Part shown: positions 5,780 through 42,920 of the stretch, one piece after another
How positions within the stretch are numbered: position 1 is the stretch's first letter
How the letters are laid out: each line of letters opens with the position of its first letter
From: Psammoneis japonica
Lineage: Eukaryota
Reading direction: 5' to 3'
DNA length: 64,000 nucleotides
Assembly (NCBI GenBank): GCA_008632985.1
Contig: QPGO01000015.1
Span: forward strand, 249,998-313,997
Notes under the pieces: model-generated
Seen by the model: only the letters and a program-made list of their open reading frames with translations
What the model was told of the DNA's origin: nothing
Database searches by the model: none
Position numbers and translations under genes: made by a program

Positions 5780-8400
5780 GCATTGACGACAATGCGTGAC
5801 AAGCGACACTTTTGTTGGAGGAAGGCCTCTTTCGCAAATGACGAGTTGTGAATGGGATCGAAAACACCGAGTGCTTGAGGAATGCTGTTGAGTTCAATCC
5901 CCGTTGCTGCCGTGACGTGATCCAACTGGAATGCAGAGCAGGGCTGAAGATTGCAGTTGATCGTGCAAGATGATGACTCCTCACACCATCAATTGTTCTT
6001 AGGCTCATGAAGGTTGCATTGAACAAGGATGGGTGAGTGCAGTTGTTCTGAGCGGAAGGTGCAATGCTTGTGGTGTGCATCTGACCTGTGCGACACTTGC
6101 TGGCCCTCAATGCCGAAGCAAGCCAACAACAAAAATTCTTCCTGCCGACTCAAAAACCATCATGGTGAAAGAGATTTCTGCACCTCCCTTCTCAAGAAAC
6201 CCCAGTTTGTGTTTGAAGATTTTGAGAGTGACCTGCTGTCCACATGGGAATGGCCACTGAGCGACCGTCGCTGGCGGGGGGTTTGAGGGTCGCATTGGTT
6301 GCAGCACGCATGGCGGCCAACATGTTTGGAGCCAAAGAAGAGGCATTGGTGCCAGGGGAAGCACTGGGCGAGGTGGCAGGAGGTGAGTCACCATCCTGAG
6401 CTGATGCCGGAGACAGAGCAGAAAGCAAAGATGTCACTGAGGAGATCGCCAGGACAACACCATCTTAGATCAAGTGCCGCAAGCAGCGGCCATCATGGGG
6501 TGTTGGTTGTGTTGTGAAAATGTCAATTGTGCACTGGGCAGTTGGCACTGGATTTTTAGACTGTGCAACTCATGCATGTCTCAGCACGCAAGTGGAAAAT
6601 TCACCATGTCACATGCACCACGTTGACTGATGAAATCGAAGAGGATGAAAAATGCAGCGGCATTGTTGGCACCATCGGCGTCAACAGAGCGGTGTTGTTG
6701 TTGTTCAAAACAATGTCCACCAGTGTCAACAAGGTTGTGCAATGAGTGTTTTGTTGTTTTGTGGTGCGGCACATGGGCCCCACTTGCTTGCAGCAGCAAA
6801 AGAGCGGCTCACAACCTCAGAGCAATCCACTGTCTGCACAGAAATGGCCACTCCACTGAGAGGTTTTGTCAAATCAGGGACTGCAACACCAAGTCATGGT
6901 TTGCCATTTTCTCTTTGCTCCAGTTTTGACAGACGTGCAATCCTGTTGTGCTTGCTGCAACAAACCACAAATCGATTGGTTGGAGTTCTGGCAACCACCG
7001 CAAACAAAATGTCTGGAGGACTTCTTGTTCCAAACTCAGGTGGTGCTCACATGCCCATTTTTGCACAAAAATGAATGTTTTGTGATGTGTGCATGCATTG
7101 CAACAATTGTTTGCACCGCAAATGTTGTGTTCATGACTGAAGCTCAAACAAACAAGTGAAAGGAAAACAAAAACAGTCATGGCTCTTTCAGCAGCCATGA
7201 CAGCCTCCTCTTTTCAACCTCGCGGACAATTGTTGAGGGGCATCATGAGGAACACAGCATTTGACATGGTTGGCACATGAACTGCACATGACAAAAATGG
7301 CTGCTGCAGTCTGTGGTGCACTTTTGCACTTGGCCATGGTGACTGCAGCTTTCAGAAGCAACAACCAGCCTCATTTTGCTCCCAATTTAATGCCAAGGAG
7401 ACTGTTTCTTTTCCTTCGTCGTGCAAGTCATTTCCCAGTTGTCAACTGGTGCAAGACTGTCAGTCATCGACATGGAGAAAGCAGTGGGAAAGGATCCAAA
7501 GTTGATGCCATTGTGGTGCTGATGCATTTCTTGATTCATCCTTCAATCAATTTGTTGCTCAATGAACATGTTGTTGAAACAGTTGAATCGCAAGTGTCAG
7601 AATGAATGCACAAAAAACTTTTTGCCTGTGTGCCACATTGACCCAATTTGTGCAAAAGAACGTTCATGCATGTTGCATGTCAGCACATCAATGTGAACAT
7701 AAATTGCTTGATGAAAAATTGAGCTCTCATCTTGCGGCACCATTTGGTGACAACAGACCCGATCAATCTTCAGAAATGAAATTGCAGGCACACACACGAG
7801 GCCTTTTTGCATGTGTTCATGTCCAAACATTTGAGTGTGTCCACTTTTTTACTGTTAAAAATTGCACTGCAAGTTTGAGCCATGCATTTAATGGGAAAAT
7901 GGGCATTTTTCATGCATGTGCGCACCCAAGTCTGGAGCAAGTGGAGTGTGAAGAAGACGCCAAAGGCTTCAAAGAAAAAGCAAACAATTGGAAGCAGAAG
8001 AAGGGTGAGCCATCCTTGGGCATGCGGCATTCATGTTTGACAACCTTGGCTCTTCTCCTCTCAGTGACATCTCAGTTGCAGGTTTCGCAGGACGACCAAT
8101 TCTTGAAAGCTCAACAAAGCAACTGTGGCAATCACAACAGTGTGCGCCAAAAGCAAGTGGTGTGTCAAGACGAAGAGAAGATTTTGTTTGTGCATCACAC
8201 GACAGCGATTTTGCTTGCATCGAAGTGAACAGATTTTGAAAACGGCGCAAGTTTTTCTGAACAAAGCAAAATAAGGCGGGAAAACAAACAGTGTCTCACT
8301 GTCACATTTTGTGCAGTTGTGGTGCGAACCGCTGGGTGGGTCTGCCCTTGTTGAAAGTTGAAACTTCCCGCACGACGAGCTCCGAACTCCAAAAAGAATG
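5780..8400. mobile_element. Degenerate repeat/TE-derived block, TpA-depleted; family not identifiable
   Basis: Almost no TA dinucleotides; overlapping Cys/His-rich, Tyr-free ORFs on both strands. Same signature as the identifiable retroelement at 18-21 kb. Confidence 0.55.
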
Positions 8401-8673
8401 AGCAGTTGCAGACGCTTGCGTGGGGCTGTTCTGGGGGACGTCTTCGGAAGTGAGACTGTCGAAGAAAGTTACGTAGATTTTGTACTAAAACAGTCTGTCA
8501 ATCAGTGCGATTGGGTATTTGGGACCTCTGGACAGATCCTACGTGTTTTTTTTTGCGTACAAATTGTACTGGGAAAGCCCCAAACGCACTGGCGATCAGA
8601 CCGCCTTCGACGATCTCACTTCCATCCAAAGACGCCCCCCAGTTCCAACTTCCAACAAACAGAAGCGACAACG

Positions 8674-9510: not shown

Positions 9511-9588
9511 TAGTAGCGAATTGAGAGGCATTGAGCATTGGTTTCGACAGCATATTGTGTAGGCCAAAAAATATCGACTTGGCGCTTT

Positions 9589-12286: not shown

Positions 12287-13190
12287 ATGAGACAGCGCGT
12301 CAACAACAATCGTAATAGCAAGACCCGCAAAATGACCCGTATCAACGGTATCTATCAAGCTCTTGGAGGTCACATGCGGTCGCTCATGGCGGTTGGTGCG
12401 TTAGTGTTCATACTGGCGGTTTCACATCTTGCTTCCAAAGAACAGATTCCCTCGTCTTCACCTGGGCCGTTGAAAGATGCTTCAAGTGTCCCAATTTCGA
12501 AAGGAGAAATCCAAGGTGATGAAACAATACCATTCTACCTGTGCAAAGGTAGTGGTGACTTGGATATGGTGTTATTGCATGGAGCTGCCTTCACGAAGGA
12601 AGACTGGAAAACGAGCGGTTTGTTGCAAAGACTTAGCACAGTGCCCCAACTCGCGTCTGTGGTTGCGTTAGATTTGTCGCATCGGTCAAAGCATGACGGC
12701 TTAATGAAGGCACTAAATGCGTTACGAAAGAAGAAAATCATTTCTCGAACATCTCCAATTGCTCTCGTGACGCCCGTGAGTATTTCAAGCATGTATTTCG
12801 TGCTGTGCAACCAGAAACGCGGCTTTTCCTAACTAATATTCCATCTGACTTCATGTTCACAATTTGTTTCGTACACCACAGTCTGCCTCTGGGGAGTCCA
12901 TGGTTGACTGGGCATCCACATTGAAAGGAGATGAAATAGCCAAGTACATTAAATATTGGATTCCAGTGGCATCACCAGCCATTTCTCGCGCAGAAGCCGA
13001 GTGGTTCAAGAGTCTAGAAAAAGTAGAGATTATGGCAGTCTACGGATCAAAAGATGCTAGAGGTAAACAAGTTTCGCTTCGACTAGAACAATACACAAAA
13101 GCCCAGGTGGTCGAAATAAATGGTTCACATCCGTGCTATCTTGACAGCCCCGACTCGTTTGTGTCAGTTGTTAACGAATTTCTTCACTAA
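12287..13190 (+). CDS. ABHD14-like alpha/beta hydrolase with N-terminal membrane anchor, 2 exons
   Basis: Intron 12776..12881 restores LVTP|SASG (ABHD14 nucleophile motif). LLHGAAF, YGSKD and HPCYLDSP also present. Confidence 0.8.
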
Positions 13191-13349: not shown

Positions 13350-13509
13350 TGGAATTATCTGATTCAACTTGAAGCTTGCTAGTAGTAGGGTCTAAGAGTG
13401 CTCTCTATCTCTTTACTCTCGAGCGACTGTAGACCAAGACTGTAGTAAGAATAGAATTAGTAGCAAGCCAGTAGGTCTCTAGTTTTTATTGGTTAGGGAA
13501 ACTACCTAG

Positions 13510-14136
13510 CTAGCAGTACGCGCGCGTGAGAAGTTCACGTGCAACGTCATCTAGTGGCGCGGGGGGAGGGACAGACGCGGGGCAATGGCGGAACGGAGTC
13601 ATGTAGGTAGGAAAAGGGATGGATTTCGAGTTGGGGTTTGATGTTTGCGATTGTAGTTTGGTGGAGTAGCGGGTTAGTTGGTCAGCGAGCAATTTGGTGA
13701 TCGCGAGGCTCAGGCTTTGTAGACCCCATTGTGACGGTGTTGAGGAGTGGTGGGCCAGGCCAAAGCATTCGGCGGAGATGGTTTGCCAGGTGGCGGTGGC
13801 AGCAGGGAGGATGGCAGACGGGGATTGTTGGGCGCAGGCATATGCGGCATGGGCAGCTGGGTGTTGAAAACAGGTTTCAGTGTTCCAAGGTGGGGCAGGT
13901 GGAGCAGGGATGGGGAGGTCTTGGTTGGCGCCAAAAAGAAGGCGGTGGGCGAAGCAGCCTGGAGCTCCCAGGTGGTCGATGGTAAAGGGAATGAGGTAGA
14001 TACCGGCGTTGTTAAGGGCGGATGTAAGGGTTGCTTCGTGTTGGGTCTCGTGGGTTCCGTTGAACTTCCGTTTTGTGCTCGTGTGGTGTGCCTCGGTGTT
14101 TGTGCAACAGTCCATCCGTCGGATTACGAATTCCAC
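13510..14136 (-). mobile_element. Probable 3' fragment of a non-LTR retrotransposon ORF (RLE/CRE-like C-terminus)
   Basis: Pro/Ala/His-rich ORF without a convincing start; LIPFTIDHLGAPG..A..LL resembles the C-terminal PF..D..G..G motif of RLE-type LINEs. Strong strand skew. Confidence 0.5.
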
Positions 14137-14454
14137 ATGGAACTAGTGAATGTGAAGCAGCCGATAACCTATTGTAACATACCATTTGTAACCGAGCTTG
14201 AGGAAACCTTTTTATTCAACCACAACCGCAAATCTCCCGACATCAACATCACACAACATCACACATCACACATCATACGGTACAACATCATCCGATCCGT
14301 GTTGGTGCAAGAAGCGACTACAACAGCAGTGACAAGCTTGACCATTGGTACTCTATCGTTCCGACCTCTGGAATCTGCAGAGCACAGTTGAATACTTCAT
14401 AATTTGGGTAGAAGCGAGAAATACGAGCTAGGCTATTACGAATAATACATCACG

Positions 14455-16069
14455 ATGCGGTTTGGTTTGGCTTGGGCGATGTTGGCCCTCCAGATGGCAA
14501 ATGCTGCTGGTAAAACGGTGTTAATGGATACGTCAGGAGGCTTGAATCGACAAATTCCATCCGTTTCCACATCCAATGGTGTCGTGGCTGTTGTTTCTAG
14601 TCCTGGGACGCCGTCTCTGTTGACTTCGTCATCGGAAGTTTTGGCACTTGAAAAGGATGACGGGTCGCCTCTCTTGTCATGTCGTGGCGCAACATTGGGT
14701 GGGACTTCAACTTCAGAACGCGCTTCTCTCGCTGCAACATCGCTTGTAGCCGGTTCCATCATTGTGGATGGAATTACTGAGGGAGATGTGGAAGCTGGGC
14801 TTCGTTACACCCGTCACGCAAGAACTCTAACTGCGCTCTTCAGAGCACGTCTTGTTCATCCAACCGACAGTACACAATCAATCATTCTTTGTGTTGCTGG
14901 TCCTGTAAGCGACGAAGTTCAGTCTAGACTTAAAGCCGAAACAAAAGCAATCTTTGATGCTGCATCTGTCGAAAAGAAAGACAGTGCTGCCTCTCTTGCT
15001 GACATTTATGACATCCAGATTGTGCCCATGCAGTCGCAAAATGACGCAAACGAGGTACGTCAGCATTGCAACGCAAAGATCTTTGTTTCTTTAAATTGTT
15101 CTCATCAGTTAGGGTTGATTTCCATCTTTAATATCATAGGCCATTGCATTGGCTTCAAAAGCCGCACAGTCTCATGCAACCGCCTCTACGCTCAGTCAAC
15201 TGCTTTCTGATGCAACGACGCAGCTTCGCGAGTCCGGTGTTTCGGCAAAGGCGTTGGATCCACCGCAGGTAGCTCAAGCGTTTCTTAGCTGCCGACAGGC
15301 ATATTCCAAGCAAGCACGAACTGCTCGTGCAAAGCTTAGTGCTTGGAAGGGACGTGTATCACGAGGCTTGTGTGTGGACTCCTTCGGGAACGAAGCAGAA
15401 GGACTCATTCAAAGGACTCTTCAGGGATACGACACAGAGACTCTAGCAGCAGCGGGTTTGCCAGTAGTGGCTCCGACACGGTTGGAGCTGCGTGGACAGC
15501 TTCAGGCTTTGGTAGAAAGTGGTCTGAGAGAACTGCATTCTGTTCAGGCTTCCAACTTGGAAAAGACGGCACTCAAGAAGTTTAACGCCCAGCTGCTGAA
15601 GAAGGTAGGCACGCCCCAGGAGACAGATAACGAGGGAAATGCTGCTTTAATGAGAGGTGCTGCATTTGCATTTGAAACAGCTGTATCAGATTTAGATGTT
15701 CCTTCCCTTGGACTGACTAAGGACAACCCCATCCGTGAAATGAGGACGAGGATCAATGATGCTCTTGACGCGTTCCCGGACAGTCCTGCTGCCAAGATAA
15801 AGCGAATGAAGGGCGTGACAAAGACTACGAGCAAGGAACGCAAACCAGGCGAACGTTCAATGAATCTGGGTTTGGATTTGGTTGCCATGCTTAGGCCTGA
15901 TGGGTTCGGAAGTCTGCAAGGATTCTGTGGCTACCAACTCGGCGACAATAGTATTACGGTAGGCGTTCACAACGACGCGGATGACCCACAAGTTGTTTCT
16001 CAATTTGGGGGTGTCCGACCTCCTCTTTTGCGTGTCCAACCAAAGCTAAAGGTGGACGTTGAGCTATAG
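14455..16069 (+). CDS. Signal-peptide protein, 2 exons; helical region weakly like the Sey1/RHD3 middle domain
   Basis: Intron 15055..15139 joins the two ORFs in frame. SFG.EA..L...L..YD...R.QL...L..L...Q...L...AL..F pattern; no P-loop seen. Confidence 0.7.
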
Positions 16070-16842
16070 AGAGGTACAAGCCGGAGAAGTCAGATAGCGC
16101 TGTTCAATAGCGTCGGCGAACTACTAGCTAAAACTGGTGTTACTACTACAACTACTACAACTAGCTCTAGAGAGAGTAGTAGAGACTTTCAAGTGAGGAC
16201 TTACCAGTGATATCCGTGATGATGCTTCAAAGCAGCATATGTCTGCAGATTTTGGGGGATGACAACTGCGAGCCACAAATTCCTCAGTTGGAATTCACGG
16301 TTCCTTCCGTTTGTAACTACGCAACCCCACGTTCGTTGGACGATTCCTGCCTCTAGTTCAACTTAAAATTCTTTTTCTTATTTGGAGCATCCATGTTTGA
16401 GAGGAGGGCGTGGTAAGCAGCTTGACGATCGAAGTCGGAAAGAAGCCTTGTACGAAACTACAGCTACGCGCAGCTGATGGGAAACAGGTTTCTTTCACGC
16501 AAGATCGCCGTTCGTACAATCGTGCCGCTGGCAAATTAGCTGTTCCTTAGATAATCGTGCAGCTTGCTGGGATTCTCTGAGTATCATTGCCGCTCTACTG
16601 TAAGCTCATCTCTCATCAGAGATTTACAACTCGAGTCAGGAACTAGCATAGTCAGATCCGATGCGGTTAGTAGTATTTTGGCCTATTGTTAGTTTGAGTC
16701 GATGCGATAGCAATTAAAAGCTTAACTCTTGAAGCCATCATCAACTGCTATCAAATTATGTGCGATGCCGCCACTTGAGGAAGCATTCTGCCTCATTCAT
16801 GGCTTCTATGGCTTAGGTGTTGAGCATTTCTCTTGCTCTACT

Positions 16843-17376
16843 CTACTCGCTACCATTTTGGGCATATCCATGCACATCGATTCTCTTGGAAAAGCGCATC
16901 CTACGCAAACGCCTAGATCTTGCTTCTCTCGCCCTTTTGAGATCACTCAAACAAAACTCGGTGGGGCCGGCTCTTGCGAATTCAGGAGGAGTTTGCGACT
17001 TTGATTCGGAAATTTTCCACCCGCCGTCCTCTTCATCACTTGGCCAATCATCTCGAGACTCGGTGACGCAACTAGTATGGACTTGCTTGTTCATATTGAT
17101 AAAGGTTTCATTTCGTGATTTAATGCTTGGACTCGTGACGGACTCAGCGCTTATTTCTGACAATGTCTCTTCTATCTGAGGACTTCTTCCAATAGCTATC
17201 CTGTACGGAATACCAAAGTAGTCAACAGGCTCATCACATAAGTTTCGTTCCTTTGGTCCATCATCTCTTTCCTCGATATCTTGCTCTCTATCGGAAGTAA
17301 CAGGGTCCCGAGAAGAGATTGAGAGAGGCGCCGGTAGATCATCGTCACGTCGTTGAAAGCTGTCGGATACCGACAT
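16843..17376 (-). CDS. Hypothetical low-complexity protein
   Basis: Acidic, Ser-rich ORF starting MSVSDSF; no domain recognised. Confidence 0.4.
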   Translation of the reverse strand: MSVSDSFQRRDDDLPAPLSISSRDPVTSDREQDIEERDDGPKERNLCDEPVDYFGIPYRIAIGRSPQIEETLSEISAESVTSPSIKSRNETFINMNKQVHTSCVTESRDDWPSDEEDGGWKISESKSQTPPEFARAGPTEFCLSDLKRAREARSRRLRRMRFSKRIDVHGYAQNGSE

Positions 17377-18729
17377 TGTCAGCGCAATCACTTTGTTTCT
17401 ATTTTTTGCTGTGGCGTGCCTTGAGCGCTTGGCACACGTCGTCTCGTTTCATCAAATGGTGAGAGGCACGTTGGTAGCTCCTCACAAGGAAACAAAGTTG
17501 AGTCCGAAGACAACGCGTCTCCGCAACGTTAAAATGAAAAATGAGAGATTTCTGTTTGAATGGCAAGAGGTTTTCCTTCTTCACACTCAACCTTCGTCTC
17601 CGACAAATGCAAGATGTTTCGAGTTGGAGTGAGGGAACTAGCTACTCTAGCTCTCTACTCTTAGAGGGAGTTGTGCATGGATATTCCAAATAATTTTGTG
17701 AGACACGGAATCGCCAATCAAGAACGCAACGCCATTTCTATATTGATTTCTATATCATTATTAATACAATATTTAAATGACGATTTCCGTTGAGGACATT
17801 TTTGGACGCGCGGAATGGTCAGCGTGTGTGCCGACACAGGCCGACACATCACACTGGCTGAACTGTTCGTTGCTAATTCTCCCTGTCCTCAGGGTCAAGC
17901 ATCACCATCAGAGATCGGAGGGCTTCTTACGTTAGGTATCTGAGACTGTCCGGCAGTGAGTCATTGTTTTCAAACTTCTTACCACGAGTTGTCATCTTTC
18001 TTCATGCTGGGATGCTTGTGACGATTTTTTGCTTGCTCGAAAATGTCAGATTTCCAGTTTTTCTTTCTTCTGACGATTTTTGGCACGCCCGAAGGAATGC
18101 ATTTCCAATTTTTTTTCTGACAAATTTTCGCGCCAGCAAAATTTTCAGTTGAAATGGGTGTTTGTTCAGGGATGTCACTGAGTGCATTTCCAGTTTTTCT
18201 TTGCTTCTCTGATGATTTTTTCGGAAATCAGCCAGAAACATCATCGTTGCAGCAGCGAAGGGGCAAGGACAGACACATCCAACACCATCCGCAGCCTTGA
18301 ATGGATTGGAGTGCCAAGGGCATTCTCCGTTGCAACTCGTCACCTCCTGTTGAGGCCGGAGCAGGAGCTGCAATTTTGACACCTTCCCAACCCACAGGGC
18401 GGGGGCACACCCGCACCGGCACCCGCGCCGGCGGCCACCTCCTGAAAACCCGGGCCAGCCAGTCCTCAGACTGGCCTGCAGCCTGCCTCTGCCAGCTTGC
18501 AAGACCTGCATCAGCAGTGCCCCTGCAGTGATGAGCTGGGCAAGCCAGCAAAGGAACAGGTCAATCTCTTGCATCAGCCAGGCTCTGGCCCCAGTTGTCG
18601 CACACTTGCACAGGGAACCATGTCTGGCGGAGAATGTGGACCAGCTGCCCCATCCAGCTGCCAAGCCACTTAAAAGTCTCTGTGACAATGGAGCACCTGT
18701 CCAGTTTGCCACCCCAGACTTGATGCCAG

Positions 18730-19464
18730 CCCAGATCCAGATGGCCACCGACCGCGGCAGCCATCCGTCTGCACATGAGTGCCTGGGTTTTCTCAAGGCT
18801 GATGTGGTGGACATCATGATCCACAAGCACTGCTGGACTGTCCTGCTGCACTGCAAGGCTGCACAACTGCCGCACCTGTGCATGTCACCAATGGGCGTGG
18901 CACCGCAACACGACCGCCGTCCACGTGCCATCGTTGACTGCAGTTTCTGCAGCCTCAACAACGAGACCATCACGCAAGCCCCAACCGATGCCATGCAGTT
19001 TGGGTGCACACTCAACCATTTTCTACACAAGATTTTCTGTGCTGCCTGAAGCACAGCCCTGTCTGCATGCTCAAGCTGGACCTGTCATTCAGATGGACCC
19101 AGATCCAGATGGCCACCGACCGCGGCAGCCATCTGTCTGCACATGAGTGCCTGGGTTTTCTCAAGGCTGATGTGGTGGACATCATGATCCACAAGCACTG
19201 CTGGACTGTCCTGCTGCACTGCAAGGCTGCACAACTGCCGCACCTGTGCATGTCACCAATGGGCGTGGCACCGCAACACGACCGCCGTCCACGTGCCATC
19301 GTTGACTGCAGTTTCTGCAGCCTCAACGACGAGACCATCACGCAAGCCCCAACCGATGCCATGCAGTTTGGGTGCACACTCAACCATTTTCTACACAAGA
19401 TTTTCTGTGCTGCCTGAAGCACAGCCCTGTCTGCATGCTCAAGCTGGACCTGTCATTCAGACGG
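18730..19464. repeat. 368-bp tandem duplication inside the RT region
   Basis: 18730..19096 and 19098..19464 are near-identical, with three substitutions seen. Confidence 0.95.
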
Positions 19465-19564
19465 TTTCTGCCGGGTGGGCCTCCGGCTCCAAGACATGAC
19501 CAAGCTGGGGGTTGCCTTCCCAGTGGGCCCGGGCGAAGAACCCCTGATCGCCTCACCCTTGGTT

Positions 19565-19970
19565 TGACACATTCCAGCTCTGGGTGAGACCTTGCACTGT
19601 TGAACTGTGACGTGTTTGTTTTTTGTCATCCGTTGCATGTTTCTCATGCACATTTCTATGTGTTTTGTCACAAAAAATTGTTCCACAGCCACTGCCTGTT
19701 TTGCGAAGCCAAAGGCTTTTTTTCTGTTGTCTGCATTTGTGACAACAAAAATGTGCTGGGTGTGTTCTTCAATGTCTGAAGAATGCACCCGGGCATGCTG
19801 CAAAGAATGCGCTTCAAGTGTGGAGGAGGAGATGCGTTCGCAAAATTGCCTCTTTTTCTGTTGGCAATCATTCACACATCCATTGCTTGACAATTTTGCT
19901 GTGGAGCTCGCACGCAGAGTTCTGCAGGCCCAATGTCACAAAAAGTCCCACCTGGGGCTGGAACTCGTCG
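19565..19970. mobile_element. 406-bp MITE-like insertion with ~26-bp imperfect TIRs and GTT target-site duplication
   Basis: Left end TGACACATTCCAGCTCTGGGTGAGAC versus reverse complement of right end CGACGAGTTCCAGCCCCAGGTGGGAC. GTT at 19562-4 and 19971-3. Excision restores RT PLVLPMG. Confidence 0.85.
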
Positions 19971-21258
19971 GTTCTTCCCATGGGCCAAACGGAAAGCCCA
20001 CCGCACTTTTGCTTCAGCATGGAAACGGTCATGGATCTGGCAAACAACTGTGCACCAACCGTGTGGGACCCCCCACCTCACCCGCTTGAGTGGGCTGCGG
20101 CAACCCCGGCACCGGTGGACAGGTCCTTGCATGTCAACATGCCACCACCTCCTGGCAAGACTCCCATGCGTCAACTCGTCAACATCCCACTGCCGCAGTT
20201 GCTTCACCGCCATCATTGTCATGGCTCCCAACCACTGCAATGTTTCAACGTGCACGTCAACGATGAAATTGCGGCTGCTCAAGGAGCTGCAGCATGCCTC
20301 AACAAGGTCTGACAACACCTCCTGTACATCAACGCCCAAGTTTTCTGACCAAACACACCATCTGATGAACATTGGTGATGGGAATCTAACTCCCTCAAAA
20401 AGCTCTCCAAAGGTGATGCCTCCTGGTCCACCATCAAAGCAATCTTGGGTTGGATCATTGACACCCTGGCTGGGACAATCCAACTTCCCGTGTGTCGACA
20501 ACAACGATTGCTCTCCATCCTTGAGGACACCATTCCTTGCCGGCGTACATCCAACAAAACCACTCACAAGCTTTTGGGCGAAGTGCGCAGCATGTCATTG
20601 GCTGTCGCCGGCAGCGCTAGACTCCTGTCGAACTTGCAGCACTTGCTCACCATGTCTCGCAATTCATGCACAAAAATAAACAGCAATGCTCAATGCCAAC
20701 TGCAAGACCTCCATGCACTGGCAGTGGACATTGTGTCACAACCCACGAGGCTCACGGAGCTGTTCCCGGCTGCCGACGGGCACTGCTGCGGTGCTTGCGA
20801 TGCTGCAAAACCCGGGTTCGGCAGCGCGCTCCTTCCAGGGCCTGGCAAGTGCCACCACCCCCGGACCTCCAGGCATCCATCATTTTGGATGACAACCCAA
20901 CTGGCACCATCACCAACTCGGATCTTGGAACTCTCTCTGGCACTGTCACGCATGAAGCCGTTGTCGGCCGTGCCGTCAACGTCCGCGAGCGCTCGGTCCA
21001 CACGTGCTGTGACAACACCCCGTCAGTCTCCTGTCGCAGAAAGGGCTCCGTCACCACGGACGGCCCCGGCACCGACATTCTCCAAACTGGTGGTCTCCAA
21101 CAACGCCATCTCCGACACGTCTCCCGGCTGCACTGCACACCGGGGCCAGCCAACCTGTTGGCAGACACGTGCTCAGGACAGCACAGTGCACGCGCGCAAA
21201 AAAGTGACGCTCGACGCTCGACGCTTCAATCTCGATCCTCCAATCCGCACTCAGCGCC

Positions 21259-21615
21259 ATGTCGCACAAGACTTTACCGTCGCTGTTGCGTCACTTCATT
21301 GGATCAGAGGTAGTGGTAGAAATAAAGACAGGTCGCATGTACAGAGGGGAGCTGGTATCGACGGATGACTACATGAATGTATCACTGCAAGACGCAAAAC
21401 AAACACAGTTTCCAGAGTTCTCTCGCAAACGACCTCGAACCGAAGTGCCAGCCTCTGCCTCCGACTCCTTCTTATTCAACTGCATGCAGATCCGAGGCAG
21501 TAACATTCGTTATATTCACTTTCCAAACGAATTAGACTTGGCGGAAGGTGTGAGAGCTGGCTTAGACCGAGAGCGTGCTGCGGCGAACAAATATCGACGT
21601 GGACTTCGCAAATAA
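21259..21615 (+). CDS. Sm/LSm-fold protein, LSm10-like
   Basis: Sm1 (VVVEIKTGRMYRGELVSTDDYMNVSL) and Sm2 (IRGSNIRYIHFP) motifs. Confidence 0.8.
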   Translation: MSHKTLPSLLRHFIGSEVVVEIKTGRMYRGELVSTDDYMNVSLQDAKQTQFPEFSRKRPRTEVPASASDSFLFNCMQIRGSNIRYIHFPNELDLAEGVRAGLDRERAAANKYRRGLRK

Positions 21616-21771
21616 ATGAAGACCTCGCTTACTGTCGCAGCTTTCTTCTCCCTTTGTACAAGTAGAGGCCCATCACAAATCAATAAGAAACTCGTTTTCT
21701 CAAGAGCCTCAGGAAACTTTGGTATTATCGGTGTCAAATCTTGGCTCGGTCGGACGAGACTATTCTACAAA

Positions 21772-23181
21772 ATGTCCTTCTCCTCTTCTAATGCCGAGCA
21801 TTTAGCCGTGTGCTCAAAGTGCGGAGGTGAAGGTCGAATTTCACGACCACCCTCCAGAAAGGCTCGACTCAGATATAAGCGAGCGAGGACTGGCGATTTA
21901 CCGCCTCCTCGGTGGGAGCCATGCAGTACTTGTTCTTCAACAGGATTGACGAATACAAAGCCACCAGAACAAGCCCCGTTCAACGTGGCGATTATTGGCG
22001 GTGGTATTGGGGGGTTGGCTCTAGCTGTGGCGTGTCGACATCGCTCTATTCCGTGTACTGTGTACGAACGCGACTTGCACTTTGGTCAACGGTCACAAGG
22101 ATACGGATTGACGATGCAGCAAGCGTCCAAAGCTCTCAGGTCATTTGGTATTGATTTACAAGGGGGCATCACTTCCACGAAGCATGTAGTGCATACTCCT
22201 GACGGAGCTGTGGTAGGGGAGTGGGGCATGCGCAAATGGGGGGAGAGCCAAAAGAATCCTAAACGTCAGAACGTGCATATTGCACGGCAGGCACTCCGGT
22301 GCCAACTATTAGAAGAATATGGCGGTTCACAGTCGGTTGCATGGAATTGTAGGCTCTTGAAAATGGAAGCACGCGATGGTCGCACGGAGCTTACTTTTGC
22401 CAACTCCGGAGAAGGAGAGCAAGTAGTTACAGCTTGGGCAGATGTTGTGGTGGGAGCTGACGGTATTAGAAGCACTGTTCGTGATGCGATTGTGGGAGAG
22501 GTTGCGGCTCCTCTCCGATACTTGGATTGCATCGTCATCCTAGGAATATGTCCAAGGACTGAAATTCGATCAGAATCACCTCTGTTAGATGGAGAAACAG
22601 TCTTCCAAACCGCAGATGGTACAACTCGCCTTTATGCAATGCCGTACTCTAGGCACGAGTACATGTGGCAGCTGAGCTTCCCCATGTCGGAGGCCAGTGC
22701 CACAGAGCTAAGTCGGACCGGCTCATCTGCATTGAAAGATGAAGCAATCAACAAGTGCCGCTCGTGGCATGATCCCATTCTGAGTCTCTTGGAAGCTACA
22801 CCAAGAGATCTAGTTTCGGGTTACCCTGTCTATGACCGAGCGATCCTTAAACCTGAGATGCTCCAGAAGCAGGCTGTCACTTTGATTGGAGATGCAGCTC
22901 ATCCAATGAGTCCTTTCAAAGGTCAAGGCGCGAATCAAGCATTGCTTGATGCGCTCTCCCTTGCCCGAGCACTCTACAAAGCTGCGAGCTCAGACACGAT
23001 TGGCATTCGGGACAGTATTGAAAATTATGAGAAAGAAATGATTGAACGAACTTCTGTTAAGGTGCAAGCGTCCGCTGATGCTGCACGATTCCTGCACACA
23101 GACGTGGCGATTCAAGAAGGTAATGTCACTCGAGGTGCGGCGGCGATGAACGCTTTGAGGGAAGATAGTGATAATGCATGA
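21772..23181 (+). CDS. FAD-dependent monooxygenase with N-terminal CxxCxGxG..CxxC Zn-binding motif
   Basis: GGGIGG, VVGADG and GDAAHPMSPFKGQGANQA. CSKCGGEG and CSTCSSTG at the N-terminus. Likely start MSFSSS at 21772. Confidence 0.88.
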   Translation: MSFSSSNAEHLAVCSKCGGEGRISRPPSRKARLRYKRARTGDLPPPRWEPCSTCSSTGLTNTKPPEQAPFNVAIIGGGIGGLALAVACRHRSIPCTVYERDLHFGQRSQGYGLTMQQASKALRSFGIDLQGGITSTKHVVHTPDGAVVGEWGMRKWGESQKNPKRQNVHIARQALRCQLLEEYGGSQSVAWNCRLLKMEARDGRTELTFANSGEGEQVVTAWADVVVGADGIRSTVRDAIVGEVAAPLRYLDCIVILGICPRTEIRSESPLLDGETVFQTADGTTRLYAMPYSRHEYMWQLSFPMSEASATELSRTGSSALKDEAINKCRSWHDPILSLLEATPRDLVSGYPVYDRAILKPEMLQKQAVTLIGDAAHPMSPFKGQGANQALLDALSLARALYKAASSDTIGIRDSIENYEKEMIERTSVKVQASADAARFLHTDVAIQEGNVTRGAAAMNALREDSDNA

Positions 23182-33951: not shown

Positions 33952-34439
33952 GACATTCGCAAATCAAAATACGGTATCTCACCAACGTGATGGACCGCAA
34001 AAGTAGTGTCATGTCACGTTAAAGCCCACCTGTTTTTAAAGAATGAGAAGTTTTGTTGCATGGCAGGGCATCTTCAGTAGGTCCATGTGTTTGGCTGGAA
34101 ACGTTCTTAATGAAGTTGGTAACAAAAGGATATCGGTACTTGGATTCTCTAAGAGATGGACTGCTCCTTACGATGCCTTACTCTAGAATAAGGAACCGGA
34201 AAAAGCGTAGATACCGTGAAATAGTCTGTAAAGAGCAAACACTAACTCCATGGCTAACGGTTCTGATGGCAGAAATGACCTGCTCGTCGGCTAGAGTTCG
34301 GCTTCTCTCAACAATTGTTAGCTTTGCCGTTGAGAATGTTGGTGTGCGCAGAATAATCATTCGTTGGCCCTGCCATGACACGCCTGAATTTACTGGGTGT
34401 TGCGTGCCGGGAGGTGTCCCTCCTCACAAAAAGGTTCCT

Positions 34440-37400
34440 GCTGGTTAGAACATGAAGCATGGAACCACATCGATCAAGCTCAGTTCATTTCAGTGCACCT
34501 TGATTGAATTTTCACACTGGAAAGGTCTCAACAACACAGCAGAGATAAAAAGCTGGTGCTGGAATCACATGAAGAGGACATTGACATTCATTGTGTGGAA
34601 GCTTTTGATCTCAAGGTTTTTCTGCCCCCCCAAGCTTGGGAGAGGTTTAAACCCCCCACCCACCCACCCCCCACCCCACCAGGCCTTTCCCACATGAAAA
34701 TTGCTCGAGTTTGGTCAAGACCACTTGGCCAGCCCCCCTGTCTGTCATCGGAAGAGTGTGTGTCCTTTGACACCAAAGACTGATCCATCTCCTGCATTGT
34801 CAATGCAAATTGTCTAAAGGCTGGGATGCCTTGGCACTTGGGTGTTTCTTTTGACAATTGGGCGGGGGAGCAAACTGACAAACTTGGACAAACATCAGAA
34901 ATCTGCACCCCACACCAGAACTCAACACAATCCAATGGTCAGCAACAACTTCAATGCCCAAGGAGTGGCACTTGGCTGTCATGGAGAAGTTGAAGCAAAA
35001 AAGACTGGAGCTCAGGCTTTCTTGCTCTTTTGATGCAAACCCTTGAACAAGCAGCTCAAGGATTGCACATGCAACCTGCACTGGGGCTGCCACACAAGCA
35101 ATTTCCACACTGCATTTGATGCTCAGGAGAGTGCCCAGGGGGCTTCTCTTGTTTTGTGGTGTCAATGCTGCCATTGCTTAAAATGTTGGTTGCTGGCAGT
35201 GCCTTGTGCAGATTTGCCAAGGCACGTTGTCAAAGAAAAAAATCATGATGGCCTTCTGCTGGGCCACCACCAAATTGCAAGCCAAGAAGGCAGTGGTGCA
35301 GTCAGGGCACCAGCGGCACACTCAAATTGGCACTTGTTTTTTCAGTCAAGTGCCTTTGTTTGTGGTTTGTTGTTTGGCATCTGTGCCTTGAAACAACAGC
35401 CTGCAACATGTTTTGACTTTTGACAAGAAAATCAAACAACAGCCAAATTTTTACACCCCTGGGACTGTGCTCTCCACAGGTGTCACAATTTTTCAAAAGC
35501 CAACCAAGTTGGTCACTGTGGTTGCAACTCTAAATTAACACTCACTCATTTTTGCCACAAATCTGGCATTGCCAAGCTGTCATTCAGGTTGACACTTTTT
35601 TTTCAGCGGTCATGGATTTGCAATGTGTTTTATTTTGTGGCCCAGCATCTCATTCAAAGTTGGCTTGCATGTTTGGAAGAGCTTCAGCTCAGTTGCCCAC
35701 TGCATGTTTTTTTCATTTTTGCTGATTTCATGTTGTTGTTGCATCAGGCACCACACAACTCAGCCACCAATCCATCATTTGCATGAGACAGTGGCACATC
35801 CCTGCTGCAATCTGATGTGTCCTCATCACACACCTGACAACAATGACAAGACTCTCTCTTCAAAACAAACTTCTTGTTGAGCCAACCCCATTTTGATGGA
35901 CAGTGCAGCTGCACACTTCAATCTTTTCCTTCCATCCAGTGTCAGTTGGCACTTCAGAGCCCAGCTCACACAGCAACAGCCATGCTGTCATTCAACCCCT
36001 GTCATCATTCATGCTTCTTGTTGCCAAGAGTGCTCATCAAGAACCAACTCAACCTTGTTGTTGCATCATTGCAATTTGACAAATTCCATCACCAACCTAG
36101 ATCACGTCACATGGGTCTGTCTCTGCACTTCATTCAGCACCACTTTGAAGCTGCAAATTGACAACAAGCACACCACAAACATTTTTTGGGGGCACCAAGT
36201 CATCAAGGCTGGCATGGCTGCAATTTGATTTTGTGTTTTTGTTTTGGTCTGGGCTTGCACACAGCACTCTGTTTTGGCAGTGGCAGTGGATTTCTCTGTG
36301 CCAGTGAATGCCAAAATATGTCCACTGTTTGGGCTGCTCTTCTCCTGTTTGCTCTGTGAATGCATCAGTTTTGTCCATTGCAGAAGATTGCAGAGGGTCA
36401 TTTGGAGGCCACACTTGTCAAAGTGCTGGCACCAATTTGCTTGTTGGAGATCAGGTGGGCATTGTTCTGCATGCACCCAACTCCAGGACCCAGGCTGCAT
36501 GAGTGGCAGTTGCAACCAAGGATTTGGCAAGAGAAAACACATTTGACATTGAGACTTGGTGCAGAGGTTGGCACAGATGATTGACACCACATTGCAATGA
36601 GAGCTGTGTCATTGAAAAAATTGGCCATGAAGACTCACTCAACAACTCACAGCAGGAAAGCTTGACAAGGCCGCAAGCCTCCAAGAATTGTGTGGCATGC
36701 AATCAGCACAGCTCAACTTCACATTTCACATTTCTAACTCACATGCAAATCAATCCTCCCATGAGATCCATTTTTGCTTGAACTTTGGATCAGAGCAAAT
36801 TTCTCCATTCTCCTCAAGCCATTTCACCCCTGCCAAACAACTCCATGTTTCTGGCATTCCCACTCAGTGCACTCTTTTTGAAGTTTCACTCACCTGTTGC
36901 CACCCAGCAATGAAAACTTTGAAAGAGTCACTCTGGAGTTTAGAAATCCCAGTCTGCTGCTGTTCTTGGGAGCAAGGTGACACAGGGGGTCACAACACCA
37001 CAGGATCAACCTTCTTGCAATGCCCAACCACAATTTTTCAGAGTGTCAGCTGGGGTTTGCCAGACACAACTGCCATGGCAGTGTCCTCAGCTTGCTGTCA
37101 TCAGGTTGGTTGGTGCCATTGTGGGGTCTTTTCACTTTGGAGTTTGAAAGTTCAAGTCTGCTGCAAGATTGACATTGCAATGCCCAGCCACAGCCCTTGG
37201 GGTGTCACCTGGGGTCTGCCAGATGCTGCCAGTGTCCTCCTCTCAGCATGCCATTGTCAGGTTGGTTGGCACTGTCATGGGGCCCTTGCACTTGCTGGAG
37301 TTCGGAAACTCATGTGCACTGCTGTTGGAGACAACAATGTGACATGCTGGGGGCACAACACCACAAGATCAGCCTTGCAATGCTCAGACACAGTTCTCAA

Positions 37401-40400
37401 AATGTTGCCTGGGACCTGCCAGATGCCAGATGCCACCACAGTCCTCAGCCATCATTTGTCAGGTTGGTTCTTGGTGCTGCCATGAATCCTTGCACTCTGG
37501 AGTTGGGAAAGTCAAGTCTGTGGCTGTCAAGGACCAGGTGACATGGGGCCACAATGTCACAAGATCAACCTGACAAAGCTGAAACACAGTTCTTAAAGAA
37601 GTCTCATCTCCCTGGCATGTGGCTCAACAGAGCTTTGTCACTCACAAGTGCTGGCAGCAAGAGCATGTGCTGGCACAGACACACACAGTGGACATCTGTC
37701 TTTTACATCATGCCACCAACATGCACGAAAGAGTCTTGAAAAATGATCTTCTTGGCTCAGACACATTGAAGCCAGAGCACCCAAGAGACTGTTGCTCAGC
37801 AAATGGCACATCTGTTGCCACCACAAAAACAATGGAGTCAACACAGACGATTCTCCTCCTCCAATGTTGTTTGTCTTTTTTGCTTCCTCCTGCTGCAGGA
37901 ACCCTTGTGGCATGAAATCTCAATGCAGCATGCATCCGCTGGTGGAAAACATGGTGAGACCACACAGCATCCCATCATGCTGCACTGCACACCAGCACAG
38001 CATGGTGTTGGCACCAAGAAAGCATGCAGCTCAGAGGGTGTGGCTCTGCATCAGGCACTTCCAGAAGAGGGTGCTGGAGTGTCTGTGCAAAGCATGCACA
38101 CATTGACTGCCCCCCAACATGGGCAAGATGCAGTGCTGACACAAGCAATGAGCGAGTGTTTGTGAGTGCACATCATCTGGGATTGGAGAAATGTGGAGCA
38201 ACTTTGATGTTGTCCAAAATGTGAACAAATGGGAGAACCCGTGCACCCCTGTTCACACAACTCTCTGTTTCCCCAGCTGCCAGCCAGTCTCACAATTGTC
38301 ACAGCAGTGCTTTTGTGACCCATCTGTTTTTTTTTCATCACCTGTCTGTGTGGGGTGTGGGGCAAAGCAACATTGCTCCCACAAAGTGCAAAAGGTTGCA
38401 AATCTCTGTTTTGACAGACAATGCCAGTCAACAAGGGCAATGGCTGCTGTGAAGCTAACCATGAAAAGCAGATCAAGCCACCAATTCTCCCTGAAATGTC
38501 CAGAGAAGAAGGATCTGCAGAAGGAAGAGCACCAGATGCAGAAGCTCTGCAGTGATCCTGGAGATCTGGGCACTGCTCCAACACACAAGCTGAGCCTGCC
38601 ACACTTCTCAGGTGGCTCTTGCAAAGAGCACCTTTGTTCATTTGAGCACAACTGGAGCAGCTCTTGAAGTCTCACCTGGGGTCCACCAGAGACCACCAAT
38701 GCCACTCTCAGCTTGCATTTGTCAGGTTGGTTGGTGCTGTCATGGGGTCCTCTCACTCTGGGGTTGGGAAAGTCAAGTCTGCTGCTGCAGGAAACAAGGT
38801 GACATGGGGCCACAATGCCACCATGAGATTGACCTTGCAATGCCCACGGCTCTCAAAGTGTTGCCTGCTGCAATCTGCCAAACACAGCCAGTGTCCTCAG
38901 CTTGCTGTTGTCAGGTTGGTTTGTGCCATCATGGGGGCCTTTCATGCTCTGGAGTTTGGAAGTTCAAGTGTGCTGCTGGCTGTTGGGGACAAGGTGACAT
39001 GGGGCCACACACCACAAGATCAATCTTGCAGTGCCCCCAGCCACAGTTCTGAAAGCACCACCTGGTGTCTGCCAGATGCTGCCAGTGTCCTCCTCAGCTT
39101 GCAACTGTTGGGTTGGTTGGCACCACCATGTGGTCCTTTCACCATGGAGCTGGCAAGAAGTTCAAGTCTGGTGCTCCTCCTGCTGAAACAAGGTGACGTG
39201 GAGCCACAACCAAACAAGACAGGCCTTGCACTGCTCTCAACCATGGTTGTTGCAGTGCAACCTGGGGTTCACAAGAGACCACCAATGCCCTCAGCTTGCT
39301 GCTGTTGATGCAGGTTGGTTGGCACCACCTTGGGGTCCTTTTGTTCTTGAGTGTTGGGAGTTTGAGCTGTGACAGAGCCCTGCAACTGCACAACACTGGC
39401 TCTCAGCACTGAACCACACTTCTTGGAGAGTGTTGCCTGGGGTTCACCAGGCAGAGACCACCAGCACCCTCAGTCTGCCATTGCTTCTTGTTGGGTTGGT
39501 TGGTGTGCCATCATGGGGGTGCTTCACTCTGAAGTTGGGAACTTCAAGTCTGTGTCAACCTGCCAGTGGGGACAAGGTGCCACACGGGGGACCACAGGCC
39601 ACAGCAGCACACAAGAGACTGTGCTGGCATGGGCAACCACTTGTTGGGAAGGAGGGGCTGCAGCATCCACATGTTTTCTCTGGGGAAGGCTGCTGCTCTG
39701 GCTCTTTGCAGGAACACACATGCAGCGCTGTGGCTGTGCTGACCCAGCCAACCTCTTGCTCAACCAGCTCCCTGTCTGTGACCTCGTGCCTGCAAGTTTC
39801 AGTCATGGTGAGAGTGATTTGTCACAAACAACCCAAAGCTTCAAAGAGAAGTTGAAGAAGTGAAAGGTTTTTTTAAACTTGCCACTTGCAAAATGATGCA
39901 GGAGGCAATGATCACAAGGCTGACTGGCTTGGCTCCATGGCTCAAAAAGGCATGTCTCATCACCACACAAAACAAGACAAAAACAAAGGATGCATCCAAA
40001 CAACACACAAACAATGATGGCATTGCAAGAAGGCACCAACAAAGCCCAGGACTCTGCACATGCTAACAAAGAAAAGCCATGTGGGAAAGGCAAGAGATCA
40101 GAAGTGTGACATGGGAGCAGGCAGCTTGCAGCAAACAACAAGCTGATGCTCTCCTTTTCCACTTTGTTCTTTGTTTCTTGAAACTCAGACAAGTTGACAA
40201 AAACAGCCAAGGACAAGAAACAAAGTGCTGCAACATTGCACACAGGTGAGCAGAAAGCAACAGCTTTGTTGTGCCATGCTTGCCAAAGAAGCCATGGCAA
40301 ACTGTCAATTTCTCTGCTGTCTTGCACTCTGCAAATGTGTTGCTGTCACATCTCACAATGAAAAGTTGTCACAAAAATTGGCTCTCTTTGGAGCACGAAA

Positions 40401-42920
40401 GATTCTTGGAGCATGATGCAATGCCAGCACGGCCAAGAACACCAAGATGAAAAACAGACTGCAAGAGGCAATGGGACAGACAATGGGATGTTGACTCATG
40501 GGGATTGAAGGCAACAGAATGACAGTGTGGGACAAAAGCATTTGTGAAATGAGAGCATGTGCAAAATGTCAAACATTGCCAGGGCAAAAAAAGAAAAAAA
40601 GAAAGAAAATTCCAATTTGCAAGTGCACATTGTGCAGAGCAGGAGTGTGTGGAAATTGACCTGAAGCACCACTCTGAGGTGCTGGCACCAAACCAAAGCA
40701 GCTGGCAACATGCTGAGCCTCATCAATGCTCAATTTAAACACAGGCTTGAAGACAACAAGCCAATTTCACAGCCCATGTGTCAAGGAGTGGGCAAGGTGA
40801 GCACCATCAGTGGAGCCCAGCAAATGGGGGCAATTCCTGGCAAGATGCTCATCCCTCTGAGCCCAAATGGCCTTGACTTCTGGCTTGGCATCATGTCTCT
40901 GCATGGATTTCCCAGTCTCACCATGTCACATCCATGTCCCACAAGCTTTGCATTGAGCCCAAATGCAATTGCCTGCTGCTGCCACCCAGTTGAACTTGCA
41001 ACTCAGAGAAGAATCCTCTGGACAATTCCAAGAAAAATGGTGGTCCTGCAGACATGCAAGCTGAGCTTCACTCCACTGAGTGGAAAAGCATCCATTGAAA
41101 ATGTGTCTCCAACCTGCCCTGTCTTGGGAAGCAGCCACCAAGCAAGTGCTGTTGTGCACATCATCTGTGCAAAGCAGCTCGCTGCAAAAAAAAGAGATTC
41201 CAGTGCTGCCAACAGAAGGTCTCAAAGGGGATGACAGGATTTGAACAAGATTTTGGTTTGTCACACATGATTGTGTGCACTCTCAGTTCTGCGTGTGACA
41301 TGTGATTTTGTTTGCTTTCAAGCCACTTGGCTTGCAAGAACAACAACAGCAATGCTGGCATCATGACACACATCTTTTGGCTCCTGTGATGGCATCTGTG
41401 CAGATGATGCTCATCTGCTGTTTAGACAGCATCAAGGAGTTGATGTTTTCTTCCACTCATTTCCTCTTCAATTTCTGTCAGGGGAGGAGATGTCATGTGA
41501 ATGTCGTCACACTTCTTTTGTGACCCCCAAAGAAACTTGTGCCTCCTCCGAGAACATGACCACAACTCTCCATGGGGTGCCAGCAGTGGATGCAACAGTC
41601 TGGTCTGGTGCAAATGCAATGGCGCACACTTGACACTCCAACGTTGTTGTCTGCAATTGTTGCACTGTGGCAAAGTTTAAAATGAATCTTGTCAAGGCCG
41701 TGCACTGTGAAGTGCCGAAGTTCATTGACTCCAGTTCCCCCCCCCCCNNNNNNNNNNNNNNAATTTTTGTAATTGTGAAATGTCATTTGTTCACAATGCA
41801 GGAGCACTTGACAAAAACACAGGCTTCTCATCAAGCAAATTTGAATTTTGAACAAGAGCAGCAGTTGCACATTCCAGACAAGACTGGCGATGGTGGTTGC
41901 TTTGCTTTGACATTTTTTTGCTTTGTTTTCATGCAAGAATGACCCAAGTCTCACATTGAGCATGGGGCCATTTCAGCCATGTTCCACCCACCACCTGCCC
42001 ATGCAGTGTGTACTTTGATTCACCAAGAAGTTTTCTGCTGAAGGACATTTGCAATCATGATCAGATGTGCCAATTTCTTCAAGTCGGGTTTTCGCTCAAT
42101 GATTCTGAGCTTCAGCTTTGAGACCTTGCTGCACTTTGTTCACATTTTTGCCTGCCCCAGATGCTGCACAAGCTTCTTCAAGTCACATGGCAAAGATTGT
42201 GGGGGGAGACAGCAGTTCTTCAGCTCAGCCAACAAAGGGGGCTGGAGAGGAGAGAACTTGATTCTTTTCTGTTTCAGCACCTGCCTGTCACCAGCACCTT
42301 TTCTTTGCATGCACACAGACCATGGCAGTCAGCCAAATTTCCTCTTCTGTTTTAGAGTGTGCTGCTCTCATGGCTTCTGTTCAGTCAGCAGAAACCAGCT
42401 TGTCAGTGACCATGTGAACGAATTTGCAAAAAGAGGCATCTTTGGAAAGAGCAGCTTGCTCCAACAAAATCCCTTGTTGCCCGCCACATGACAAATGCCA
42501 ACAGTGTGTGGTGGTGGTTGGGAAAAGTTGAAGCCATGTTGTCATTGTGGTCCTCAGTGGCAGCAGTGGCAGCCCCGTCAACAACCATCTGAAGGTGGCG
42601 ACTCACATCTGCCAAAAGTCAATGGGGGCAGCAACTCAGCGGGGCTTGAGAAAGCACACCTTGCTGCTCTGTGTGTGGCCACTCTTTTTTTAAGAAGCCC
42701 ATCACCTCAAGCTCAAAAGGAGAAACACCAGTTGAGGGTTCAAGACTTGCCAATTGCCAGAGCGCCCACTTTGATTCAAGCCCTCGGCCAACAAGAAGGA
42801 AGGTTCTTGCTGTGTGCACAGGAGAGCCCCCCCTCCCAACGAGAACAGCACACACCAGGAGGGATGGGGCATGGTTCTTGCTGGCCAGAGAGCGTGCAGT
42901 TGTCTTTGCTCCAGGCCCAC
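34440..42920. mobile_element. Large heavily decayed repeat block lacking both TpA and CpG (contains an N gap at 41748-41761)
   Basis: TG/CA-saturated sequence; almost Tyr-free, Cys/His-rich spurious ORFs; internal ~190-bp repeat family. Confidence 0.65.
36925..39600. repeat. Degenerate ~160-200-bp tandem repeat array, interrupted at ~37600-38660
   Basis: Core (CA)GGTTGGTT recurs at ~37102, 37258, 37460, 38723, 38912, 39110, 39311 and 39493, usually followed by CACTCTGGAGTT..GAA.TTCAAGTCTG and CAAGGTGACATGGGG.CACA. Confidence 0.8.

Follow-up and report, generated by a model that had tools for sequence, protein, structure and literature searches.

Near-complete loss of TpA from four blocks of a diatom contig, and a candidate A:T to G:C hypermutation process acting on inserted DNA

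Four sharply bounded blocks in a 64,000-nucleotide stretch of DNA from the diatom Psammoneis japonica (GenBank assembly GCA_008632985.1, contig QPGO01000015.1, positions 249,998 to 313,997 of the forward strand; this whole stretch is called the window) have lost nearly all of their TpA dinucleotides together with much of their CpG, and both kinds of step became TpG or CpA by transitions only. We consider it probable, though narrowly so, that the blocks are dead inserts in which the decay of CpG has been joined by a faster, saturating conversion of TpA to TpG/CpA, a process that would be driven by an enzyme and targeted through silencing.

Dinucleotide counts and observed/expected ratios (o/e) were compared between the pooled blocks (15,251 bp) and their flanks (48,735 bp), the limits of each block having been refined to the last and first TA of the flanking sequence (Table 1). 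TA occurs 42 times in the blocks (o/e 0.04, 2.8/kb) compared with 2,062 times in the flanks (o/e 0.61, 42.3/kb), and CG 276 times (o/e 0.29, 18.1/kb) compared with 2,640 times (o/e 0.97, 54.2/kb). The products are correspondingly abundant, with CA at o/e 1.79 in the blocks (1,771 steps, 116.2/kb) versus 1.16 in the flanks (3,439 steps, 70.6/kb) and TG at 1.75 (1,602 steps, 105.1/kb) versus 1.14 (3,555 steps, 73.0/kb). The loss is confined to the blocks: a 500-bp window holds 7-42 TA in the flanks (o/e mostly 0.4-1.0) and 0-5 in the blocks, and when such windows were moved in 100-bp steps, all 462 lying entirely outside the blocks contained at least 6 TA and all 134 lying entirely inside contained at most 5, with no overlap. 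Each block edge can be placed to within tens of bases and is met directly by TA-rich flank sequence. With the TA expectation of each block taken from the flank rate, P(A|T) = 0.159, observed and expected counts in blocks 1-4 are 9/106.1, 9/118.8, 2/26.6 and 22/331.1 (binomial P from 1e-10 to 1e-121), a retention of 6.6-8.5% that is alike in every block, whereas CG o/e differs from block to block (about 0.48, 0.61, 0.27 and 0.08). An earlier note on this DNA had described four TA-poor, TG/CA-rich blocks among normal genes, and the clean separation of the window counts, with TG and CA at ~1.8 times expectation, bears this out; of the segments that it had called free of TA, 20678-21274 indeed contains none, while 17982-19023 carries one TA, at 18671. 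The note had not drawn attention to the accompanying CpG depletion. Among the residual TAs of the blocks, TTAA contexts (11/42 versus 4.7% of flank TAs) and CTAA/TTAG contexts (12/42 versus 8.9%) are enriched, which reflects either a disfavored context or fresh mutations.

The type of change follows from the step counts. Pyrimidine-purine (YR) steps make up a fraction of 0.2421 of block steps and 0.2400 of flank steps, and the loss of TA and CG (75.6 per kb) is matched by the gain of TG and CA (77.7 per kb); the equal YR share and the match of loss to gain mean that the sequence changed by transitions only and that its purine/pyrimidine skeleton is untouched. The change is specific to the dinucleotide, for AA shows no depletion (o/e 1.21 in the blocks versus 1.13 in the flanks), and G+C is 0.504 in the blocks and 0.473 in the flanks. 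It is also symmetric between the strands: TG and CA are nearly equal in number in every block (Table 1), and a runs test finds their order to be random (z = 0.9, 0.9, -1.2 and 0.6 for blocks 1-4), which implies that the changes fell site by site, without long tracts in which a single strand was changed.

The direction of change was determined in block 2, which its relatives identify as a degenerate retroelement. Its ORF (open reading frame) at 20379-21368 has 831 homologues at E <=0.001 in a full HMMER scan, the best of them 51% identical; three of the six long block-2 homologues that were scanned match RVT_1 weakly, at 22.4-26.5 bits and thus under the 29.6 cut-off; and the tblastn matches of the family lie on the + strand, at 18500-19500 and at 19900-21200. 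Codon columns of the window were compared with those of 150 homologues, a column being counted if at least 8 homologues were aligned and at least half of them agreed. The window is identical at 277 of the 406 conserved columns so defined, and yet all eight conserved Tyr columns have lost their Tyr codon, now reading CAC (four), TGC (three) or GAC (one). Two pairs of these columns lie inside a tandem duplicate, leaving six independent sites (three His, two Cys and one Asp). Tyr is present at these columns in 34/53 up to 62/66 homologues, and the best conserved of them, at 19469, is presumably the tyrosine of the polymerase motif. On the sense strand, Tyr has given way to His by T to C and to Cys by A to G. 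At 38 conserved Arg columns, 17 codons still encode Arg (15 of them CGN), four encode Lys and one Pro, and 16 have become one-step products of CpG change (5 TGY, 3 TGA, 4 CAA and 4 CAY). The TpA-poor state is rare among relatives: TA o/e is 0.25-1.02 in 80 related metagenome loci, where 8 of 3,289 500-bp windows have TA o/e <=0.15 and none has fewer than two TA, although these loci were located via conserved peptides and are consequently biased toward well-kept copies.

The conserved YR steps, the Tyr to His and Tyr to Cys codons and the rough equality of TG and CA together uphold the proposal of the earlier note that TpA had been converted to TpG/CpA on both strands. Its description of the block ORFs as nearly Tyr-free and rich in Cys and His stands in part, in that the block-2 ORF has 0% Tyr (1.7% in homologues) and 3.0% Cys (1.3%) but no excess of His (3.6% versus 3.8%), and the lack of Tyr is trivial because Tyr codons require TA. 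The same note had offered polymerase eta as a candidate agent, which does not agree with the data: its WA motif should erode AA, and AA is retained. Four further candidates were rejected. A processive single-strand deaminase is disfavored by the runs test, which found no strand-coherent tracts; GC-biased gene conversion by the undepleted state of AA and TT and by a G+C content of just 0.504 versus 0.473; ADAR-like editing by undepleted AA and by change on both strands; and avoidance of CpG/UpA in DNA of foreign or viral origin by the mutated conserved residues and the normal TpA of the relatives.

Two processes can be told apart in the blocks. Expectations computed from base content give 22.3 TA and 53.8 CG for the 597 bp at 20678-21274, which contain 0 TA and 49 CG, and 23.9 TA and 13.2 CG for 17982-18281, which contains 0 TA and 11 CG. 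The former stretch falls in the homologue-aligned part, and its conserved Tyr codons read CAC and GAC. TA is thus absent where CG is near expectation, and TA retention is constant while CG o/e ranges over 0.08-0.61, from which it follows that the two losses can be separated and that the loss of TpA is the more complete. The excess of TG and CA, which the earlier note had ascribed to TpA alone, has two sources: TpA contributes to it, and about half is ordinary CpG decay. The comparison suggests that TpA loss ran several-fold faster than methylated-CpG decay, in most genomes the quickest substitution of all; a loss that outpaces it would behave like enzyme-driven hypermutation rather than drift.

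The order of events can be read from the tandem copies at 18730-19464, which have their TG/CA choices in common and differ at three positions, each of them CG in one copy and TG/CA in the other. The common pattern places TpA loss before the duplication, with CpG decay continuing afterward. The outcome at a given step is therefore copied and is heritable, and it can differ between paralogues. The letters at 18803-18804 are T|G in the window (GAT|GTG) and C|A in a contig of another genomic copy (GAC|ATG); homologues have Met at this codon in 30/47 cases and Val in 1/47, which implies an ancestral T|A that was resolved as TG in the one and as CA in the other. For a nearby TG/CA pair, at 18770-18771, an ancestral CpG is the better explanation. 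When the paralogous units of block 4 are aligned, 75 of 591 TG/CA steps have TG opposite CA, compared with 18/271 for GT/AC, 4/187 for AG/GA and 4/269 for CT/TC as controls, these counts being drawn from 13 overlapping alignments that are not independent.

We propose that the change of CpG to TpG/CpA represents the ordinary, clock-like decay of methylated CpG, and that the change of TpA to TpG/CpA (A:T to G:C) is a second, presumably faster process that has run to saturation in all four blocks at any CpG state. An enzyme would act on the self-complementary TpA step, the silencing machinery directing it to inserts, and would most likely leave on one base of the step a mark or lesion that, when the DNA is replicated, behaves in pairing like the opposite partner of the transition, in parallel with the change of 5-methylcytosine (5mC) to T. 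On a thymine-side route this could be an oxidized thymine of the 5-hydroxymethyluracil/5-formyluracil (5hmU/5fU) type, made by a JBP/TET-like enzyme and pairing with G; on an adenine-side route it could be hypoxanthine, formed by deamination either directly or via 6-methyladenine (6mA). These routes are inseparable by sequence because the outcome in the duplex is identical. Formally, each of the changes C to T and A to G is a deamination, and 5mC and T are both 5-methylpyrimidines, so that a single machinery for both palindromic steps is conceivable. The wider proposal, that diatoms, or at least this one, possess a DNA-level genome defense of polarity opposite to repeat-induced point mutation (RIP), in which silenced inserts acquire a further symmetric mark or lesion at TpA, through a JBP/TET-like dioxygenase or through adenine deamination, and A:T to G:C hypermutation then proceeds until TpA is gone, is put forward tentatively, as a possibility that falls short of probability. 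Such a defense would remove all of an invader's TAA and TAG stops, Tyr codons and TATA-like signals, and would turn the insert into a TG/CA-rich sequence class that could in turn be recognized.

Several points weigh against an enzymatic, silencing-targeted process. We know of no natural enzyme that makes A:T to G:C changes at TpA in double-stranded DNA, and we infer both the enzyme and its targeting purely from the footprint in the blocks. Direction was read from homologues in block 2, whereas blocks 1, 3 and 4 rest on the constancy of YR steps, and the independent resolution of a TpA into TG and CA in different genomic copies is a single site. The region is present in three sequencing runs only, with platform unrecorded; all belong to a single sample and study, from which the assembly was probably made, and they therefore provide no independent confirmation. 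Further points come from summed contig depth, a measure that adds up contigs at least 80% alike and is not equal to copy number. Within block 2, the stretch 19480-19900 has a summed depth of 1,832-44,558 (~60 in the flanks), which points to a very abundant repeat, and the part at 19482-19781 holds 1 TA versus 18.9 expected. Very high depth in a stretch that appears TpA-poor in most copies too makes later multiplication possible; the stretch could have multiplied after TpA loss, so that some copies may not have been mutated in place. At 8470-8640, beside block 1, summed depth in run X1 rises to ~14,900 versus ~60 and yet TpA is normal, in what seems to be a short, abundant repeat spared from TpA erasure, and at 13500-13850 (G+C 0.58, summed depth 778-1,405) TpA and CpG are both normal.

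Since these two short high-depth stretches keep their TpA, repetition alone does not seem to be the trigger. By summed depth, repeats seem to be present within blocks 1 and 2, and block 3 and the left part of block 1 are close to the flanks. The claim in the earlier note that the process is restricted to repeats therefore seems too simple: confinement to sharp-edged blocks agrees with it, but the retention of TpA at 8470-8640 and 13500-13850 and the near single-copy depth of parts of blocks 1 and 3 do not. Selection of the blocks by a length threshold or by chromatin state would fit. The stretch 13500-13850 overlaps ORFs on both strands.

A first alternative, which we regard as unlikely, is that the elements were TpA-free on arrival, either because a mutated master multiplied or because hypermutation took place within the transposition cycle, on cDNA or extrachromosomal copies, so that the blocks were dead when they inserted and the chromosome was never targeted. 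Sharp edges that match inserts would be expected from such a history, as would tandem copies with the same TG/CA pattern and a stretch such as 19480-19900, which combines very high summed depth with a TpA-poor state in the window; other copies also rarely have TA where the window has TG or CA (among the 40 differences listed, of 476). It is harder to reconcile with four unrelated sequences in the same state, three of which are not recognizable retroelements, or with the equal change of the two strands, which is unlike the one-strand editing of cDNA or RNA. One ancestral T|A was, moreover, resolved differently in two genomic copies, and an element with all of its conserved Tyr replaced and with TGA at Arg codons cannot be an autonomous master.

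We give less credence still to a second alternative, in which TpA loss is a by-product of the repair of T:G mismatches that arise by 5mC deamination, through error-prone resynthesis of the patch or repair biased toward C:G. Its nearest counterpart is the very-short-patch repair of Escherichia coli, which depletes CTAG. The CpG depletion of the blocks makes methylation and T:G mismatches plausible, and efficient repair could spare CpG and yet mutate its neighbors, which would agree with the state of 20678-21274. Error-prone resynthesis is at odds with undepleted AA, contrary to the WA motif of polymerase eta, and a bias strong enough to erase more than 90% of TpA should protect CpG, whereas CG o/e in block 4 is ~0.08. 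TpA loss is, in addition, equally complete at any degree of CpG loss.

That the blocks are a sequencing or assembly artefact, modified bases of heterochromatin having been misread so that true TA and CG are displayed as TG and CA, seems to us very improbable. Methylated repeats are a classic site of systematic miscalls, and the reads come from the one sample of unrecorded platform that probably also yielded the assembly. The locus-specific contigs of run X1, however, stand at full depth (59-64, the same inside and outside the blocks) and depart from the window by two letters at 5001-7742, none at 14070-18751, two at 19935-21172, one at 21145-23805 and none at 23784-25000. Misreading of one strand would split sites and halve word depth; neither was seen, which disfavors an artefact. 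Nor would miscalls give TG/CA choices that were copied through a tandem duplication and that differ heritably between paralogues. The earlier note had itself named miscalled bases as grounds for abandoning its claim; with the X1 contigs giving almost the same letters as the window, those grounds did not materialize to the extent that a single run can tell. Scarcely credible is a genome-wide neutral bias against TpA and CpG that becomes visible without selection, the blocks being the oldest junk DNA: flank TpA is also low (o/e 0.61), but several 500-bp windows outside the blocks reach TA o/e 0.9-1.04, TA-rich stretches adjoin the blocks, and the saturation of TpA loss where CpG, the usual fast clock, is intact means that age alone is insufficient.

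Table 1. Coordinates of the four blocks and of features within them, as positions in the window; the limits of block 4 are approximate.
Feature	Position	Strand	Basis
Block 1: TpA-erased, CpG-poor	5769-8469		TA 9, CG 69, TG 299, CA 278
Block 2: degenerate retroelement with pol-like pseudogene; TpA-erased, CpG half lost	17981-21274	+	homologues, tblastn; TG 308, CA 376
Tandem duplication in block 2, two 367-bp copies, 99.2% alike	18730-19464	+	self-comparison
Block-2 stretch without pol homology, very high summed depth, TpA-poor	19480-19900		tblastn, depth
Block-2 sub-stretch, TpA erased, CpG intact	20678-21274	+	TA 0, CG 49
Block 3: purine-rich, TpA-erased, CpG-poor	23657-24741		TA 2, purine-purine steps 48%; TG 112, CA 111
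Block 4: largest, TpA and CpG almost gone	34649-42922		TA 22, CG 42, TG 912, CA 1043
Two arrays of ~190-bp internal repeats in block 4	about 36928-37600, 38650-39603	+	self-comparison
Run of 14 N after poly-C tract in block 4	41748-41761		sequence

The four blocks have no mutual similarity, and a common family for all of them is thereby ruled out. Searches with the block sequences were largely negative: Pfam gave no match in ten block ORFs or in the six read-through frames of blocks 1-3 and of block 4, an Atlas search gave no usable match for one block-4 ORF, a tblastx comparison with the 80 related loci gave matches for block 2 and none for blocks 1, 3 or 4, and Rfam gave no match anywhere in the window. 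A word-indexed protein search with two block-2 ORFs likewise returned no match despite the 831 HMMER relatives, a miss that is a limit of such an index on mutated sequence. In block 1, an X1 contig (depth 56) and a contig of a second run, X2, join 6224 to 6888 and carry 17 other letters, so a related sequence that lacks 663 bp of block 1 occurs elsewhere in the sample. The + strand of block 3 is rich in purines (G 458 versus C 207), and the block resembles GA-rich DNA of low complexity more than a coding element. In block 4, the six frames of 34000-43200 contain 13 overlapping ORFs of 150-284 amino acids in several frames, which are long because TAA and TAG are gone. Long C-rich tracts lie at 34625-34680, near the start of the block, and at 41738-41761, at the run of N, which is probably an assembly gap.

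The ORFs of the flanks are ordinary eukaryotic genes, with Pfam matches to SIR2, acid phosphatase, ThiF/MoeB, FAD monooxygenase, LRR, TPR, copine and Urb2. Named relatives of the MoeB gene, 66-75% identical, are all from diatoms, among them Seminavis, Nitzschia, Cyclotella, Discostella and Mayamaea; an Atlas search with this gene carried no taxonomic information, and the diatom assignment relies on these names. Contigs of run X2, which is labeled 'DNA?', skip 12775-12882 (with GT..AG ends) and ~15052-15138, likely introns, and the run may for this reason derive from RNA; its cover over blocks 2 and 3 is almost nil and provides no evidence either way on expression.

The literature searched held no description of TpA erasure in the repeats of diatoms or other eukaryotes, where an earlier report may still exist. 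To our knowledge, C:G to T:A is the direction of every described mutational genome defense (RIP, APOBEC) and likewise of passive decay in methylated DNA. What we observe in the blocks is a footprint, from which we infer the system. If such a system exists, either the DNA of diatom heterochromatin would be modified or an enzyme would act on double-stranded DNA, and we know of no description of either. There are consequences for genome analysis as well. Relics of this kind escape similarity searches (none found by Pfam or the word index, 831 by HMMER), they mislead gene prediction, for TGA is the sole stop left and long false ORFs open in all six frames, and transposon ages based on divergence would be wrong. 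The pair of TpA and CpG could serve as a two-clock marker, TpA fast and saturating and CpG slower, for mapping silenced DNA in diatoms by sequence.

Among known systems, very-short-patch repair in E. coli always resolves T:G to C:G, with TA to CA/TG as the net change, but it is bound to CTWGG, slow, genome-wide and bacterial, and it protects the methylated site. ADAR acts on double-stranded RNA and leaves clustered A-to-G changes with a preference for U before the edited A, an A after A being edited too. It differs in working on RNA and affecting the transcribed strand only, whereas in the blocks conserved Tyr codons have become both TGC and CAC, TG is about equal to CA, and AA is untouched. 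Polymerase eta, which in somatic hypermutation makes A-to-G changes at WA motifs, is alike in its action at TA and differs in that AA should also be hit. Base J and 5-hydroxymethyluracil, made by JBP/TET enzymes, are symmetric marks on T, found at TpA in the telomere repeats of kinetoplastids and at TpA/TpC in dinoflagellates, and marks of this kind could be a chemical source of T-to-C changes; we know of none in diatoms and of no case in which they erase TpA, and the papers listed by a literature search for 5-hydroxymethyluracil together with diatoms were all on dinoflagellates. The signature does not fit APOBEC.

The decay of methylated CpG is like the CpG part of the pattern, with its CpG deficit and gain of TpG/CpA, the 16/38 Arg codons and all 3/3 differences between the tandem copies, but it leaves TpA untouched, whereas in the blocks TpA loss is the more complete and extends to sequence in which CpG is intact. 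RIP, in Neurospora and other ascomycetes, is similar in being a hypermutation of one dinucleotide that proceeds by transitions only, on both strands, in sharp-edged inserts or repeats, and destroys the genes of the element. The polarity is reversed: RIP changes C:G to T:A at CpA and creates TpA, while in the blocks A:T changes to G:C and TpA vanishes. A passage in PMC7884421 gives a TpA/ApT of at least 0.89 together with a (CpA+TpG)/(ApC+GpT) of at most 1.03 as thresholds for RIP. These indices are 0.056 and 1.91 in the blocks, compared with 0.65 and 1.25 in the flanks, and both therefore lie on the opposite side from RIP.

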